Origin: a bacterium BMS3Abin06
GTDB taxonomy: Bacteria; Nitrospirota; Thermodesulfovibrionia; UBA6902
Length of the DNA stretch: 64,000 nucleotides
NCBI GenBank assembly: GCA_002897895.1
Contig: BDSY01000058.1
Coordinates: 40,109 to 104,108, forward strand
Reading direction: 5' to 3'
Shown: piece by piece, positions 57,230 to 64,000 of the stretch
How positions within the stretch are numbered: position 1 is the first letter of the stretch
Layout of the letters: every line of letters begins with the position of its first letter
Position numbers and translations under genes: made by a program
Notes under the pieces: model-generated
What the model saw: the letters and a program-made list of their open reading frames with translations, nothing else
What the model was told of the DNA's origin: nothing
Database searches by the model: none

Positions 57230-59269
57230 ATGGAACTTATCGCATTATTGAGTAATAGTGATGATCTGATTATCCCGGATGTAAAGGATGCACTCAGGAA
57301 GTACACAGTGTATCCGTTGAAGACATTAGAAGAACTTGAGGACCTGTACGGCAATATCCCCCTGAATCTCTTCCTTATTGATACGACCTCCCAGAGGTTG
57401 TCTTCTCTCTGTGATTTCTTAAACAAACTCGATCAAAATGTGGTCATGCTAATTGCACCTGAAAAACTTGACAGGTTTAAAATGGATAATCTCCCGCAGA
57501 GCGTGTTTGATTCCATTGATATCGGGTCAATAAGAACCGGTCTTCCGGTTATAGTTGAACGTGCTCTCGAAAGGCAGAGGTTTGGAAATGAAATAAAGTT
57601 ACTGAAGCAATCGCGGGATATTGTATCGCCGGTGCAGATGAAGGCTTATAACGGATTAGAGACGGAAACATTTTTAAACCGCAGTGAACCTGTGCCGGGC
57701 GGCAGATATATCCATGAAAAGGTTATTGTTAATTTTGCCAGAATGTTGTCGGTAAGTTTTGACATGCGGAAGCTTTTAGATCATTTTATAGATTCTGTAA
57801 TGGAGATTGCCCGCGTAAGCAGGATGTCTATTATGCTCAGGGATAAAGAAGGCTTTTATGTCAAGACGCACTATGGCATAGATCCATATATTGCTGATAA
57901 TCTTAAACTCCGGAAAGAGAGCTCTCTTGCAAGCCGGCTGACAAGAACAGGGCGGATCATGCAAAAGCCGGCCGGTTTTACAGGTGCGGATACAGCATGC
58001 ATTAAAGCCGAAATGGAAGCACTGCAGTGCTCGGTTTCATTTCCCATGATATACAAGGGCAAGCTGATAGGGATCTTTAATATCGACGATAAAATCACTG
58101 AAGAGCCTTTTTACAGGGAGGAACTGGAGATAATATACATATTATGCAATTATCTTGCGGCTGCTGTAAAGGATATAGACCTCTATCATCAAATGTGGTA
58201 TCAGAAGGAGTTTACAAAGAACATACTTTCAAGTATGAGCAGCGGAATGATCGCAATAGACTGCGATGAAAAAATCACCATTTTTAATCAGCAGGCATCG
58301 GAGATACTGAACCTTGATCCTTCAGAAATAATCGGCAGTGATTTAAGGGCGCTCCCCCCGCCGCTCGGAGATATATTATATGAAACCATGGCAACCGGCA
58401 TTTCTTACAGCCGGTATGAGGTTACAATAAATCCTGCGAAACTGCCGCTTGGAATAAACAGTTACAGGCTGCTTGACGAACAGAAAAATCCGGTAGGAGC
58501 GGGGATTTTATTTTCCGACCTCTCTGATTCCAGGAAGTTGGAGGAGCAGCAAAGGAGGGCGGAGAACCTCAAAGCCGTAAATGACCTTATGGCAAAGATA
58601 GCCCATGAGGTGAGGAATCCTTTAACTTCAATACAGATATATACACAGTTATTGAATGACAAATATAACGATGATGAATTAAACAAATTTTATATTTCAA
58701 CTGTAAGGCAATCAATCAACACGCTTGACAGTTTGATTGATAAACTGGTGACTTTTTCAAGCACTCAAAACTATAATTTTAACAAGGTGGAATTAAACGG
58801 CTTTTTAAGAGAGACCGAAGAGTTCATATTGAAGGATATGCCTCAGACCCACCGGTTTTCAAGGCAGCTGCTGCATAATTCTTTTTATATTAATGCCGAT
58901 AGAAAACAGATGACAAAGGCGATTTACTATATTATATTATTTATTATCGACAAAACACCTGAAGGAGCGGTTATTACTATGGATCTTGACACAATAATGC
59001 AGGATACCCCTTTTATTGAGATATCGATAAAATATGCCGGAGATATATCTATTAAGGATGGGAAGCAGAACCTGTTAAAACCCCTGCTGGATATCGGTCA
59101 TCTCGGAACCGAGTTGAATGTGCCGATAAGCCATAAGATTATTGAAGGGCACAGCGGAAGTCTTGATATGAAAAGCGAGGGCGGCATTAATACCTTTATC
59201 ATCAGGCTGCCGCTTGTTGACAGGAGAAGCTCTAATGTTTTCTTTGTGCGAGGTCATTTAAATGGATAA
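57230..59269 (+). CDS. Cytoplasmic sensor histidine kinase (receiver-like N-terminus, GAF, PAS, HisKA, degenerate ATPase)
   Basis: IAHEVRNPLTSI H-box and a PAS-like segment. Confidence 0.7.
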   Translation: MELIALLSNSDDLIIPDVKDALRKYTVYPLKTLEELEDLYGNIPLNLFLIDTTSQRLSSLCDFLNKLDQNVVMLIAPEKLDRFKMDNLPQSVFDSIDIGSIRTGLPVIVERALERQRFGNEIKLLKQSRDIVSPVQMKAYNGLETETFLNRSEPVPGGRYIHEKVIVNFARMLSVSFDMRKLLDHFIDSVMEIARVSRMSIMLRDKEGFYVKTHYGIDPYIADNLKLRKESSLASRLTRTGRIMQKPAGFTGADTACIKAEMEALQCSVSFPMIYKGKLIGIFNIDDKITEEPFYREELEIIYILCNYLAAAVKDIDLYHQMWYQKEFTKNILSSMSSGMIAIDCDEKITIFNQQASEILNLDPSEIIGSDLRALPPPLGDILYETMATGISYSRYEVTINPAKLPLGINSYRLLDEQKNPVGAGILFSDLSDSRKLEEQQRRAENLKAVNDLMAKIAHEVRNPLTSIQIYTQLLNDKYNDDELNKFYISTVRQSINTLDSLIDKLVTFSSTQNYNFNKVELNGFLRETEEFILKDMPQTHRFSRQLLHNSFYINADRKQMTKAIYYIILFIIDKTPEGAVITMDLDTIMQDTPFIEISIKYAGDISIKDGKQNLLKPLLDIGHLGTELNVPISHKIIEGHSGSLDMKSEGGINTFIIRLPLVDRRSSNVFFVRGHLNG

Positions 59270-60284
59270 CAGGGAAAGAATTCTTGTTATAGATGATGAG
59301 CTGGCGCCCAGGGAATCCATCCGGATGATTTTGAAGGATCAATATGCCGTATCTACGGCTGAAGGGGCGCTTGAAGGGTTGGATATTATGAGCCGGAATC
59401 CTGTAAACCTGGTAGTAATGGATATAAAGATGCCGAAAATGGATGGTATCACGGCACTGCAGGAGATAAAGAAAAGACATCCCGACACCGAGGTTATTCT
59501 GTTAACGGCATATGCCAGTCTTGAAACAGCCAGGGATGCGATACGGTTTGGCGCTTTTGATTATTTGATAAAGCCTTTTGATAAAGACAATGTATTATCT
59601 GTTGTCGGGAAAGGACTGGCTAAAAGGCGGGCTAACACAGGTTTGAGATTAGAGCGTGATATCTTGTTAGACAGGGCCTCCTATCTTGAAGAGCAGGTAA
59701 ATAATGCCAGGAGTAATATCATGACGTGCTATGAAGGCACGGTTAATGCGCTGATTCTTACTATTGATGCCAAAGACCATTATACATATGATCACTCAAA
59801 CCGGGTTGCAAAATTATCTTCTTCTTTAGCAAAGGCGTTCGGGGTCCCTGACAGAACAGTAAAAGAGATAGAGAATGCAGCCTCTATCCATGATATAGGG
59901 AAGATCGGCATAGAAGAAAATATTCTCAAGAAAAACGGAAAGTTGACTTCATACGAATATACGGAAATAAAAAAACATCCTGCGATAGGCGCCCGGATTG
60001 TTCAGTCCGTGCCCTTTCTTGAGGACGCAATTCCGGTCATTCTTTATCATCATGAAAGGTTTGATGGAAAGGGATATCCCGAGGGCAGAGAAGGTGAACA
60101 GATACCTCTCGCAGCGAGAATAGTAGTTGTTGCAGATGCTATTGATGCAATGATGAGCGCCAGGCCTTATAGAGATGCGCTCACCATAAACAGAGTTTTA
60201 GACGAATTAAGAGATAATACCGGAACCCAGTTTGATCCCGGGATTGTGGATGTTATATTGAAAGGCAAAGTACCGTTCGAATAA
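59262..60284 (+). CDS. Response regulator with HD-GYP phosphodiesterase domain (RpfG-like)
   Basis: REC domain with D54-like aspartate; HD...HHERFDGKGYP. Confidence 0.8.
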   Translation: MDNRERILVIDDELAPRESIRMILKDQYAVSTAEGALEGLDIMSRNPVNLVVMDIKMPKMDGITALQEIKKRHPDTEVILLTAYASLETARDAIRFGAFDYLIKPFDKDNVLSVVGKGLAKRRANTGLRLERDILLDRASYLEEQVNNARSNIMTCYEGTVNALILTIDAKDHYTYDHSNRVAKLSSSLAKAFGVPDRTVKEIENAASIHDIGKIGIEENILKKNGKLTSYEYTEIKKHPAIGARIVQSVPFLEDAIPVILYHHERFDGKGYPEGREGEQIPLAARIVVVADAIDAMMSARPYRDALTINRVLDELRDNTGTQFDPGIVDVILKGKVPFE

Positions 60285-60440
60285 TTGCATCGTTATTTTT
60301 ATGTTGATTGCACCTATGCCGATGACCCGGCCGATGTTCTCCCCTGATGCTTCATGATCTTTACGCTCCAATGCTCCGGTCAGTTTTATATCGTCCAAAT
60401 CCTCAACCTTCATTTATGCCCCCTTTTTTATTCTTTTACG

Positions 60441-60479
60441 GACACGGGAGGTAAGACCGGTTTTCGTGTCCGTTTTTAT
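60441..60479 (+). terminator. Rho-independent terminator (CGGACACG/CGTGTCCG stem followed by a T-run)
   Basis: Read directly after the HD-GYP gene. Confidence 0.6.
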
Positions 60480-60529
60480 TCTTGTCTTTTACGGTCACGT
60501 TAAACGGACACGTCCCACGATCCTTTCCA

Positions 60530-61675
60530 GTCGCAATCCCTTATTTATCAGGTCTTCTTTGATTCAAAGCAAACACAAACAGATACTGAACGCATAGTCG
60601 CAATCCCTTTTTCATCAGGTCTTCTTTGATTCTGTTTCACTGGGCAAATTAGGATTAATGCTTGCCGTCGCAATCCCTTTTTCATCAGGTCTTCTTTGAT
60701 TCTACCTGGCTGCAAAAAAGCCCTCCTTAATCCGATGTCGCAATCCCTTTTTCATCAGGTCTTCTTTGATTCACAGTCCTGAAGAATAACTGTAAAGCAA
60801 GTCGTCGCAATCCCTTTTTCATCAGGTCTTCTTTGATTCACCCTGCAGGAGGATGGGACATATCAGATATGGGAGTCGCAATCCCTTTTTCATCAGGTCT
60901 TCTTTGATTCAATGAAAAAGAGTGAACCCGTGAAGTGGCATTCAGTCGCAATCCCTTTTTCATCAGGTCTTCTTTGATTCATTATTTTTTTCTTATTTGA
61001 ATTACTAACTTTGTCGCAATCCCTTTTTCATCAGGTCTTCTTTGATTCGATTTTAAAATGTGCAATTACATATTAAGCGGCATGTCGCAATCCCTTTTTC
61101 ATCAGGTCTTCTTTGATTCCAAGATTGGAGCTTAGCCTCGCAGAACGTAAGAGTCGCAATCCCTTTTTCATCAGGTCTTCTTTGATTCTTTAAGGGCTAT
61201 CGGCTTGTGGTAGGCCACTGTGTCGCAATCCCTTTTTCATCAGGTCTTCTTTGATTCACTGTTGCTCTCCATGCTATGCAAGATTTTCTGGGTCGCAATC
61301 CCTTTTTCATCAGGTCTTCTTTGATTCAATTAATGTTGTTGGGAAACATCCAGCGCTGAGTCGCAATCCCTTTTTCATCAGGTCTTCTTTGATTCTCAAA
61401 AACAGGTCAAATACCTTTTGTCAAATACTCGTCGCAATCCCTTTTTCATCAGGTCTTCTTTGATTCCTTTCATTTCCTTTAATTACACTGCAAATTCACC
61501 AGTCGCAATCCCTTTTTCATCAGGTCTTCTTTGATTCTGTGCCTCATTCACAGAGGTACCTCTTTTGATCCGTCGCAATCCCTTTTTCATCAGGTCTTCT
61601 TTGATTCGTGAATACGGTGCCAAACGTGGTAAAAGATTAGTCGCAATCCCTTTTTCATCAGGTCTTCTTTGATTC
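60530..61675 (-). CRISPR. CRISPR array with 17 repeats of 36 nt (GTCGCAATCCCTTTTTCATCAGGTCTTCTTTGATTC on the plus strand) and 16 spacers of 31-35 nt
   Basis: Repeats start at 60530 (degenerate, 2 mismatches), 60597, 60667, 60736, 60804, 60875, 60945, 61013, 61084, 61153, 61222, 61292, 61360, 61431, 61502, 61572 and 61640. An AT-rich leader at 61676..61803 lies next to cas2. The degenerate repeat is distal. Transcription is inferred on the minus strand, so crRNA repeats would end ...GGGATTGCGAC. Confidence 0.9.
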
Positions 61676-61803
61676 AGCACCCCTCAAAAATAATTTGTGA
61701 AATCCAGCTATTACAGCGCCCATTGAGCAGCTTTTCTTTCTTACTGAAAGCAACCTGTTTTTGCCTCCCTTTTTTGAATTTTGAATCTTCGGAGCAGAGA
61801 CTT

Positions 61804-62082
61804 TTACTCAAGAAAAATTTCTACTCCGTCCGGCACCCTGTCTCCGCATCCCATAACAATAACTTTATAATCAGAGGGAAGCGGATATATCCTCACATCG
61901 TCTTTTTCTTCATCAATTAACCAGCTCAGTTGCTCCTTTAACTCTCTTAATTGCGGCCACGTCAATGTGCAATGGAAAACCGAGTACTGGAGATGTATTC
62001 CCCGGCTTTTCATAAATCTGTAAACCCGCGCCAGTCTTCGGGGTTTGGTTATATCGTAACATACAAGATAGTCAGTCTTCAT
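61804..62082 (-). CDS. cas2: CRISPR-associated endoribonuclease Cas2
   Basis: MKTDYLVCYDI...YSVF start. Confidence 0.8.
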   Translation of the reverse strand: MKTDYLVCYDITKPRRLARVYRFMKSRGIHLQYSVFHCTLTWPQLRELKEQLSWLIDEEKDDVRIYPLPSDYKVIVMGCGDRVPDGVEIFLE

Positions 62083-62900
62083 GAAAGCATCTCTCTTATT
62101 AAGTCAAAAAGTTCATCAATAATGTCTTCTGCTTTCTCTTTGACCTCTTTTCGCTTGTTCTCAAAGCGGTGTGCGATATTCCTGATGCCCCGGTCTGTCA
62201 TAACCCAGTGCCCGGTTTCATTTTTGATCAGCTCCCTGAGATTAACAGAATGGAAAAACTGCAATGTCTGCATATCACTTTCACCGCCCATGATATAACA
62301 AATATCAAGGGCAAGCCCGAAGTTATGCCTCCGGTGAATCACTCCAAGATGAGGGTCAAGCCCCGAGTGTATAAGGCTTTCTATAATTACATTTCTGAAG
62401 ATACCCGTAATGATTCCGTTGACAGCAAGCCACTTTCTTTCCTTAACCTTTCTGATGCCCTTCAATATTTCCTGGTAATTACCCTCTCCAAAACCTTTTA
62501 TCTCAAGCTTCGCTGCCAGCGGGGGAACATATCTTCTCAACATGTTTAATTGCAGTAAAATCCTTTTGGCAGTCGCCCATTTCTGATAGTGAAGAATTGT
62601 TCCTTCAGAATCCAAAAGCACCTTTTGCTCTTTGTAGTGATCCGGCAGCCGGTGGTTGTACGGGATGACTACTGCTGATTCATCCGCCCTTCTGTTCATG
62701 AATGTTATCGGTATATTATTGTCGGCAAAAAGAGTGATCGTCCCTGAATCAAGCCGGACATTGCCTATGACAATTACCCTTCCCACCAGGCGCGCGGGGA
62801 TCCTCCGGCCTGCCCGGCCTTCTTCCTTAACCCAGATTGAAGGGCCGTCTCTTTTTATCACCGGTTTATTTGCCTGACTTATATACAGGGTCCTGCCCAT
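62079..62900 (-). CDS. cas1: CRISPR-associated Cas1 (copy A, next to cas2; diverged catalytic motif)
   Basis: MGRTLYIS start after SD AAGGAGGA and Cas1 N-terminal beta-sandwich pattern. The start is chosen downstream of the ORF-track start. Confidence 0.7.
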   Translation of the reverse strand: MGRTLYISQANKPVIKRDGPSIWVKEEGRAGRRIPARLVGRVIVIGNVRLDSGTITLFADNNIPITFMNRRADESAVVIPYNHRLPDHYKEQKVLLDSEGTILHYQKWATAKRILLQLNMLRRYVPPLAAKLEIKGFGEGNYQEILKGIRKVKERKWLAVNGIITGIFRNVIIESLIHSGLDPHLGVIHRRHNFGLALDICYIMGGESDMQTLQFFHSVNLRELIKNETGHWVMTDRGIRNIAHRFENKRKEVKEKAEDIIDELFDLIREMLS

Positions 62901-63843
62901 CCATAATCCTCCTTGCAATCCCTCTTGCTTCCTCAACCCAGAGCGGCCTCATCTCCTGTGCCCATTGTTCATATAATGGATAAAACTTCTTTCGGCTCGC
63001 CTTTTTCAGATAACAGCCCGGCCTTTCATCATTCATCGCAAAGTCTCTCTTTGTGAGTGTCCGCTCCCTGAACAGTTCCCATACAAATCTGTCGACCTGA
63101 GGGCGGTATGACTCAACAAGGTCGCATGCAAGGGATTCTCTTCCATAGTCAAACTGATGATAAAACCCGATCACAGGATCAAGACCGATAACCTCTATCT
63201 CCCTGACGAGTTCAAAGTGCATCATTGTATAGCAGAGCGAAAGCATGGCATTGACAGGATCCAGAGGCGGCCTCCTGTTTCTCTTCTTGAATCCCAGGGA
63301 TTCGGGGAATATTCCTGTAAAGGCTGAAAAATAACCTGCAGATCCCCCGCCTTCCATGCCGCGCAGTGTCTCCATTTCCATGTTCTGTTTTTCAATTTCA
63401 ATGACTATCCCCTGAAGCGTGCATATTGCCCTGGTCAGCGGATAGCGCAGATCAGGACGTTTTTCCCTGACATGCATCAGAAACTCCTTCTGGCCTTCCA
63501 TCTTTCTCCTGACAATGTCTGTTGCTGCTTTCATATTAAAATCAGAGAGTGACTTTTCGTACTGTTTAATCCTCAATAACCCGTTGTTGTGCAGTCTGCC
63601 ATGCAGCATCCCGCAAAACCTCAGCCTCTTGCCTGATAAAAACAGGACACTTATCCCTTCCCGCGCAAGCATATTCAGCGCTGATGTCTCAATCAATATA
63701 TTTCCCACTATTACGACCCGTTTAAGCGGGTTAACAGGCACAACGCCCTCTCGTCCCTGCTTTGAGTAAAAAGCAAGAGCTTTACCATCCGGTTTCAGAT
63801 GAAGTTCTTTTCTGTCAATGTATAGTGTACTCATAAGCTTCAA
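62866..63843 (-). CDS. cas1: CRISPR-associated Cas1 (copy B, canonical motifs)
   Basis: STLYIDRKE start; YHQ...DLVESYRPQVDRFVW matches the canonical Cas1 metal-site region. Confidence 0.75.
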   Translation of the reverse strand: MKLMSTLYIDRKELHLKPDGKALAFYSKQGREGVVPVNPLKRVVIVGNILIETSALNMLAREGISVLFLSGKRLRFCGMLHGRLHNNGLLRIKQYEKSLSDFNMKAATDIVRRKMEGQKEFLMHVREKRPDLRYPLTRAICTLQGIVIEIEKQNMEMETLRGMEGGGSAGYFSAFTGIFPESLGFKKRNRRPPLDPVNAMLSLCYTMMHFELVREIEVIGLDPVIGFYHQFDYGRESLACDLVESYRPQVDRFVWELFRERTLTKRDFAMNDERPGCYLKKASRKKFYPLYEQWAQEMRPLWVEEARGIARRIMDGQDPVYKSGK

Positions 63844-64000
63844 TTATCAATCAGTAATTATCAATGATCAATCAAGGAAGTTTTTTCATTCATAATTCTT
63901 AATTCTTAATTACTCATTGATTTTCACCCTATATAAAAATACGCAGGATCTTTTGGCTGCACTCCGATCCCTATAGCATGAGTCCTGCTTCTTGCATCCA

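Follow-up and report, generated by a model that had tools for sequence, protein, structure and literature searches.

Near one end of the 64,000-nucleotide stretch analysed here (the window, taken from contig BDSY01000058.1 of the Nitrospirota bacterium BMS3Abin06) lies the adaptation module of a CRISPR locus, in which a canonical cas1 gene (cas1a) and a strongly diverged one (cas1b) stand between two cas2 genes (cas2a and cas2b), next to a leader and a repeat array. This four-gene module is a distinct, conserved and type III-linked variant of the adaptation machinery that is catalogued only as the label of a hidden Markov model (HMM), and no functional study of it was found. Of the two ideas put forward in an earlier note on this DNA, a heteromeric integrase and the capture of a second adaptation module, the evidence favours the heteromeric integrase, although by a modest degree: the four proteins would form one complex in which Cas1a is catalytic, Cas1b is structural, and Cas2a and Cas2b provide the bridge.

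Two Cas1 and two Cas2 paralogues

The earlier note had reported two tandem, strongly divergent cas1 genes beside cas2 and the array. Both open reading frames are real, lie on the minus strand at the positions given there and have Pfam matches, with 17% identity between their products by profile alignment; the start of cas1a needed correction, since the ATG at 63834 is the one conserved in homologues, whereas a TTG farther upstream stands at 63843, the position proposed earlier. Scanning a single genome for each species yielded 40 related loci, 30 of them with all four genes complete. Cas1a is a complete, canonical Cas1. It matches the full Pfam Cas_Cas1 model (253 bits against a gathering threshold of 22.3) and TIGR00287 (199.3 bits against a cut-off of 71.7), its residues E161, H226, D238 and E241 are kept in 30/30 orthologues, as is the following Arg244, and the motif order (E...H...D-x-x-E) is that of TM1797. 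The solved structures nearest to it are the type I-C Cas1 (8d3l) and the type I-G Cas4/Cas1 (7mi4).

Cas1b is a single-domain protein with the Cas1 fold; its reading frame is intact and subject to purifying selection, it is neither a fragment nor fused to Cas4, and the pseudogene or fusion with Cas4 or another domain that the earlier note had named as a refutation found no support. The Pfam Cas_Cas1 model matches it best across the N-terminal part (57 bits against the same gathering threshold), and it falls below the equivalog cut-off of TIGR00287 (52.6 against 71.7 bits). Identity to Cas1a is about 27% over the N-terminal 67 residues by BLASTP, and the alignment of the two families with hhalign extends over 243 columns with 96.6% probability. 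The AlphaFold2 model, built with 27 homologues, has a predicted local distance difference test score of 87.5 and a predicted template modelling score of 0.84, and its best match in the PDB by Foldseek is the Cas1 protein TM1797 of Thermotoga (template modelling score, TM, 0.77); the best 50 of the 152 matches at E<=0.001 are all Cas1 proteins or casposases. Together with the profile alignment, these comparisons indicate an N-terminal beta domain and a C-terminal helical domain, as in Cas1. The model fits one set of Cas1 chains (TM about 0.73-0.77) better than another (about 0.46-0.52), and no weight is placed on this difference. In a database search the family comprised 177 clusters at 90% identity, whose length is constant at about 273 aa; almost all of the 120 clusters listed are of 270-280 aa, mostly from Nitrospirota and Thermodesulfovibrionia, and no natural fusion protein was seen among the matches. 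Conservation is higher in the N-terminal domain (0.59) than in the C-terminal domain (0.43).

The cas2-proximal copy had been identified as the diverged one, which is borne out by the profile alignment, where ALDICYIMGGESD of Cas1b stands opposite ACDLVESYRPQVD of Cas1a. When the active sites are compared, that of Cas1a is complete and that of Cas1b degenerate. The profile alignment places H189, D199 and Y202 of Cas1b opposite H226, D238 and E241 of Cas1a, in agreement with the alignment to TM1797, while the glutamate is displaced into a loop that is 3-4 residues shorter and the equivalent of R244 is lost. Position 202, which corresponds to E241 and to D221 of E. coli Cas1, holds Y, H, F or R and is acidic in none of the 30 close loci, nor is it often acidic in wider relatives, and H189, the equivalent of the catalytic histidine, is kept in 20/30 loci. 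Among representatives at 50% identity, the glutamate and histidine positions take almost any residue and D199 and E247 are nearly invariant. In E. coli Cas1, alanine at any one of E141, H208, D218 and D221 abolishes nuclease activity (PMC4046053). The pattern is that of a protein that has kept its fold and some binding surface with no selection for catalysis, and it is very unlikely that Cas1b serves as an active subunit of an integrase.

Only one cas2 gene had been recognized previously, at the position of cas2b. A second one, cas2a, reaches the window with its 3' end: the translation of 63924..63998, DARSRTHAIGIGVQPKDPAYFYIG, comprises its last 24 residues and is followed by the stop codon. 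Cas2a carries a precomputed PF09827 assignment on the contig and matches PADLOC Cas2 models at 1e-19. Cas2b matches the Pfam CRISPR_Cas2 family with 72 bits and exceeds the TIGR01573 cut-off of 24.5 bits. The two are 41% identical, and Cas2b constitutes a conserved family of its own, with a mean pairwise identity of 0.63 and motifs distinct from those of Cas2a.

The genes are packed closely (Table 1). The overlap between cas1a and cas1b is 35 nt and out of frame, with the ATG of cas1b inside the end of cas1a, and the stop of cas1b and the start of cas2b overlap by 4 nt (ATGA). The AAGGAGG motif that precedes cas1b would fit translational coupling of the two cas1 genes, and this internal Shine-Dalgarno-like site, combined with the out-of-frame overlap, suggests coupled and roughly equimolar synthesis of Cas1a and Cas1b. 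The start of cas1b was set at 62900 because the 273-aa protein beginning with ATG is the one on record; an exact-protein look-up with a 285-aa version beginning with TTG was empty. A promoter and terminator scan of 60300..64000 gave nothing above chance (4 promoter-like sites against 5.9 expected).

Table 1. Features of the adaptation module and adjoining array in the window
Feature	Position	Strand	Basis or remarks
cas2a, 3' end	63924..64000	minus	start outside the window at the equivalent of 64205; full product 93 aa
cas1a, Cas1 integrase of canonical type (by sequence), 322 aa	62866..63834	minus	Pfam Cas_Cas1 3.4e-75; TIGR00287 199 bits
Shine-Dalgarno-like AAGGAGG	62908..62914	minus	7 nt upstream of the cas1b ATG, within the 3' end of cas1a; direct reading
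cas1b, divergent Cas1-fold paralogue with degenerate integrase active site, 273 aa	62079..62900	minus	Pfam 2.3e-15; AlphaFold2, Foldseek, hhalign
cas2b, second Cas2 paralogue, 92 aa	61804..62082	minus	Pfam CRISPR_Cas2 4.7e-20; TIGR01573 48.4 bits
Leader, 128 nt	61676..61803	minus	between cas2b and repeat 1
CRISPR array, 17 repeats of 36 nt and 16 spacers of 31-35 nt	60530..61675	minus	

The diverged copy is easily missed. In the record of the metagenome-assembled genome (MAG) itself Cas1b is labelled 'hypothetical protein', the second Cas1 of three distant modules has no Pfam match on record (L056:10001-10789, L057:10001-10834 and L058:2100-2912), and no PADLOC Cas1 model matches the profile-detected relatives P0313, P0318 and P0324 at E<=1e-5. 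A second Cas1 that lies below the NCBIfam cut-off, with some relatives escaping all Cas1 models, is often called hypothetical and is thus missed by routine cas annotation.

Conservation of the unit, its array and its type III setting

Searches with the four window proteins (tblastn) found the order cas2a-cas1a-cas1b-cas2b and its strand to be constant wherever the contig was long enough. The overlap of cas1a and cas1b amounts to 8-35 nt in 28/30 loci, and that of cas1b and cas2b to 4-11 nt in 29/30; the exceptions to the four-gene unit are L040 and L049, which are apparently eroded. Mean pairwise identity is 0.73 for Cas2a, 0.63 for Cas1a and 0.49 for Cas1b, besides the value given above for Cas2b. 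When 1.84 billion cluster representatives were searched with a profile, 72 relatives of Cas1b were recovered at E<=1e-30, followed, at weaker significance, by a continuous tail of proteins of 250-290 aa with full-length matches to the Cas1b profile. One candidate from this search, P0336, of 2168 aa and with 12 'matches', was discarded as a spurious low-complexity repeat protein. The six distant relatives on contigs of sufficient length (L051, L052, L056, L057, L058 and L059) all show the order cas2-cas1-cas1'-cas2', and the shorter contigs L054 and L055 are consistent with it; among those with enough flank, one module adjoins a III-A operon and another a III-B (Cmr) operon. The four genes travel as a tightly packed unit across many lineages, beside type III effectors where the flank allowed this to be seen. 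The unit, which is kept at identities from 79% down to about 20-30% and in several phyla, is far older than the close Cas1b family.

The module and its repeat family were also observed in MAGs whose assigned phyla differ widely, among them L019 (MTND01000030.1, 'Archaeoglobi archaeon JdFR-42'), L012 (Deferribacteres), L042 and L043 (Syntrophorhabdales) and L048 (Ca. Saccharicenans). Such a distribution suggests horizontal transfer or, in the case of the archaeal bin L019, possible mis-binning.

The array and the ending of its repeat, ...ATTGCGAC on the cas strand, are as previously described. The repeat reads GAATCAAAGAAGACCTGATGAAAAAGGGATTGCGAC on that strand, and the degenerate copy is the one farthest from cas2b, as would be expected if the leader is at the cas2b end. 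Across 15 related loci the leader contains the conserved blocks GGAGGTGAAA..AGGTTGC, AAATCTGCACAA and TGTAA and the G-rich block GGGGGTGC, which abuts repeat 1. A repeat family with conserved ...AGACCT...AAGGGATTGCGAC lies downstream of cas2b in each related locus that has an array; every module with a detected array has one array and one repeat family, and no array was found upstream of the module in the available flanks. Some of the related arrays have as many as 106 and 109 repeats. In spite of the conservation of this family across about 25 loci, a search of Rfam at the gathering threshold found no CRISPR-DR family for the 36-nt repeat.

Two other assemblies of the same locus, L002 (ERZ909563) and L008 (ERZ1742238), have 18 repeats against the 17 of the window. 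Their additional spacer, AACCATCCACTTCAATAACATCTGGTGCGCCATTT, is 35 nt long and stands directly after the leader-proximal repeat, corresponding to about 61640 of the window, and their other 16 spacers are those of the window in unchanged order. The locus gained, or, less likely, lost, a spacer at the leader end between the sampled populations; the difference is the footprint of polarised acquisition and indicates that new spacers are taken up by the module in nature. Viral contigs contained no exact protospacer either for this spacer or for spacer 1 of the window.

The flanking context beyond the window was obtained from contig DRFC01000017.1 (Nitrospirae MAG GCA_011050745.1) and near-identical contigs through exact-protein look-ups. 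Upstream of the module there are cas6 and a Csm6-type ring nuclease, then cas10/csm1, csm2, csm3 and csm4, followed by an MNT-HEPN pair, an AbiEii-like gene, a gene for a 73-aa protein and a gene for a TIGR02710 CARF protein, after which come the complete cas2a, cas1a, cas1b and cas2b. The earlier note had considered the CRISPR type unassignable; beyond position 64000, however, Cas10/Csm1 (TIGR02578, 647 bits against 170), Csm2 (TIGR01870, 33.2 against 30.6), Csm3 (TIGR02582, 198 against 90) and Csm4 (TIGR01903, 123 against 55) all exceed their curated NCBIfam cut-offs, and the locus is therefore of type III-A. In the 10 kb read, the interval from csm4 to the accessory genes showed no csm5 (cas10-csm2-csm3-csm4 occupy L007:1909-6481 on the source contig). 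Of the 18 loci whose upstream flank reaches about 8.5 kb or more, 13 have type III effector genes that are detectable with the proteins of the window locus.

The same cas10-csm2-csm3-csm4 layout occurs in the closest relatives (L013, L046 and L049), and others, such as L056, carry an extra gene for a repeat-associated mysterious protein (RAMP). The MNT-HEPN pair, the AbiEii-like nucleotidyltransferase and the 73-aa gene lie within the III-A operon from csm4 to the CARF gene (L007:6583-8047), and the last two recur beside the module in L013, L014, L018, L029 and L049. In the window itself, genes on the plus strand for a GAF/PAS histidine kinase and a response regulator with an HD-GYP-type HD domain (57230-60284) converge on the distal end of the array. 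A thiamine pyrophosphate riboswitch (RF00059, 42999-43101, plus strand, 66.2 bits, above the gathering score) is unrelated to the CRISPR module.

A proposed heteromeric integrase and its rivals

In the complexes of E. coli and of other organisms it is established that each Cas1 dimer contains one active and one structural protomer, and the dimer itself is made by the N-terminal domain. The same division has been described for homomeric complexes, where only one of the two Cas1 subunits in a dimer is active and the inactive ones have a structural role (bioRxiv 10.1101/2025.06.10.658980). In the reading that we favour, the four proteins would build a single heteromeric spacer integrase, a subfunctionalised version of the ordinary Cas1(4)-Cas2(2) complex. 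Cas1a would supply the catalytic protomer of each Cas1 dimer, Cas1b would permanently occupy the structural, non-catalytic position that already exists in homomeric dimers, and the bridge at the centre would be made of Cas2a and Cas2b, probably paired as a heterodimer. If a duplicated Cas1 pair became an obligate heterodimer, selection would no longer act on catalytic residues in the structural copy, while the dimerisation domain would be kept, a scenario that matches the lost catalytic residues and the better conserved N-terminal domain of Cas1b.

Several observations weigh against this interpretation. The associations of Cas1a with Cas1b and of Cas2a with Cas2b are predicted ones, and the pairwise distances of the four proteins, which are correlated in all six pairs to a similar extent (r 0.63-0.82), reflect co-inheritance and do not single out binding partners. 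A structural protomer does not by itself require a second Cas2, and the model explains neither the duplication of Cas2 nor the conservation of the former active-site region of Cas1b. Residues 181-200 of that region (LDPHLGVIHRRHNFGLALD) are the most conserved segment within the close family (0.75), and D199 is nearly invariant even among distant members, which makes a retained ligand-binding or an altered catalytic function of Cas1b possible. Moreover, the extra spacer of L002 and L008 could formally reflect a deletion of exactly the first unit in the population of the window.

The main rival, to which we give a probability well below that of a single integrase, has two complexes: Cas1a and Cas2a would form the integrase, and Cas1b and Cas2b a separate, non-integrating accessory complex, for instance for the capture, measuring or hand-over of prespacers, or a regulator of acquisition for type III systems that do without a protospacer adjacent motif (PAM). 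The mirror-symmetric order, cas2a-cas1a followed by cas1b-cas2b, which puts each Cas1 beside its own Cas2, would suit such pairs, as would the strongly conserved signature peculiar to each Cas2 paralogue and a conserved basic and polar patch of Cas1b (H184, R190, R191, H192, N193 and D199) that could bind nucleic acid without catalysis. However, the out-of-frame overlap with its internal ribosome-binding motif joins cas1a to cas1b and not the presumed partners, the b-pair occurs without the a-pair in none of the loci examined save the two eroded ones, and no precedent was found for a Cas1-Cas2 complex that does not integrate. A more specific proposal, which we regard as doubtful, is an obligate and intrinsically polar integrase of the form (Cas1a-Cas1b)2 bridged by a Cas2a-Cas2b heterodimer, whose asymmetry would replace the one based on PAM and Cas4 and allow a PAM-less type III system to orient or select spacers. 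That Cas1b might instead be an active transesterase with a rearranged site, so that two integrase activities divide the labour, for instance between leader-side and spacer-side attack or between DNA and another substrate, seems unlikely. The Nitrospirota-type family does keep E139 (29/30) and D199 (30/30, one of them Glu), and H192, E207 and D209 are nearly invariant close by; across the wider family, though, positions 139, 189, 192 and 207 vary freely, which catalytic residues do not, the equivalent of D221 is non-acidic in almost all members, and the E. coli mutants cited above (PMC4046053) lose activity with any one of four residues.

Adaptation modules are known to recombine between loci, and a second module that had recently come from another CRISPR locus by capture or fusion, the other idea in the earlier note, would account for two Cas1 and two Cas2 genes as redundant copies. 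Such swaps between loci have been estimated (PMC12669027). For the present module a local event of this kind is very improbable: the unit is old, tightly packed and spread over several phyla, its gene order is identical in 30 species-level loci and in distant relatives (whose weakest profile matches have E of about 1e-9 to 1e-13), a single array with a single repeat family accompanies each locus, the genes overlap one another, and catalytic residues have been lost from Cas1b. That the cas1b gene is merely an artefact of annotation or a pseudogene in decay has a negligible probability. Its score under the TIGR00287 cut-off and its label in the MAG record could give that impression, but the reading frame is intact and preceded by a Shine-Dalgarno motif, the clusters of the family are constant in length and share many invariant residues, and the structural model is confident.

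Relation to described systems and significance

The closest entry in existing catalogues is PDLC01185, a PADLOC model whose description reads 'Cas1, diverged variant, second in the loci' and which is the best match (about 1e-16 to 1e-18) of P0338, P0339 and P0361, distant relatives of Cas1b. In the window, in the 30 related loci and in the loci of the proteins that match this model, a second cas1 follows a canonical one; the contigs of P0338, P0339 and P0361 show cas2-cas1-cas1'-cas2' where they are long enough, and P0393 and P0390, relatives of P0338, stand in the same four-gene order beside III-A and III-B effectors. The wording of the model's description presumably goes back to the Cas profile set of Makarova and colleagues. 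Cas1b of the window, in contrast, belongs to a separate, mainly Nitrospirota branch and matches the model weakly (E=5e-4, 17.8 bits, residues 6-76). The two families are therefore linked, with the window protein no clear member of the catalogued one. In the literature, no description or test of a cas2-cas1-cas1'-cas2' module, or of the function of either branch, was found, and the text of the 2025 classification update does not mention the four-gene module. An 'extra cas1' in Thermus (PMC7515739) was considered as a precedent and set aside, because it concerns an assembly correction and no tandem paralogue.

Compared with the canonical Cas1-Cas2 integrases (Cas1(4)-Cas2(2) of the E. coli I-E system and the Cas4-Cas1-Cas2 complexes of types I-C and I-G, 8d3l and 7mi4), the sequences of Cas1a and of both Cas2 proteins are those of ordinary members, the genes likewise lie beside a leader and an array, and there is evidence of leader-proximal acquisition. 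The module differs in that the two roles of Cas1 are apparently carried by two genes, one of which has lost catalytic residues, in that it has two Cas2 paralogues, and in that it has no Cas4. With RT-Cas1 and Cas6-RT-Cas1 it shares the character of a type III-associated elaboration of the adaptation module, and Cas1a is detectably similar to the Cas1 part of 7kft; here, however, there is neither a reverse transcriptase (RT) nor a Cas6 fusion, and the elaboration consists of a paralogous Cas1/Cas2 pair. Group 1 of the Cas1-solo proteins also comprises homologues of Cas1 in which the set of four active-site residues is incomplete and for which a lack of endonuclease activity is predicted (PMC4046053), but these are not linked to CRISPR, whereas Cas1b is found strictly within a CRISPR adaptation operon beside an active Cas1.

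In CRISPR immunity, memory is universally written by the Cas1-Cas2 complex, an enzyme that serves as a tool for molecular recording as well. To our knowledge, all complexes studied so far contain four identical Cas1 subunits, only two of which work as enzymes. The module described here appears to split the catalytic and the structural job between two genes and has doubled Cas2 as well. If its products do form one complex, the contributions of the non-catalytic Cas1 protomer and of each Cas2 protomer would come separated by nature, the control of the choice or orientation of spacers in PAM-less type III systems might find an explanation, and an asymmetric integrase scaffold would be available for engineering. 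Should the complex prove to be intrinsically polar, it would be the first example from nature of catalytic and structural Cas1 protomers that each have a gene of their own.

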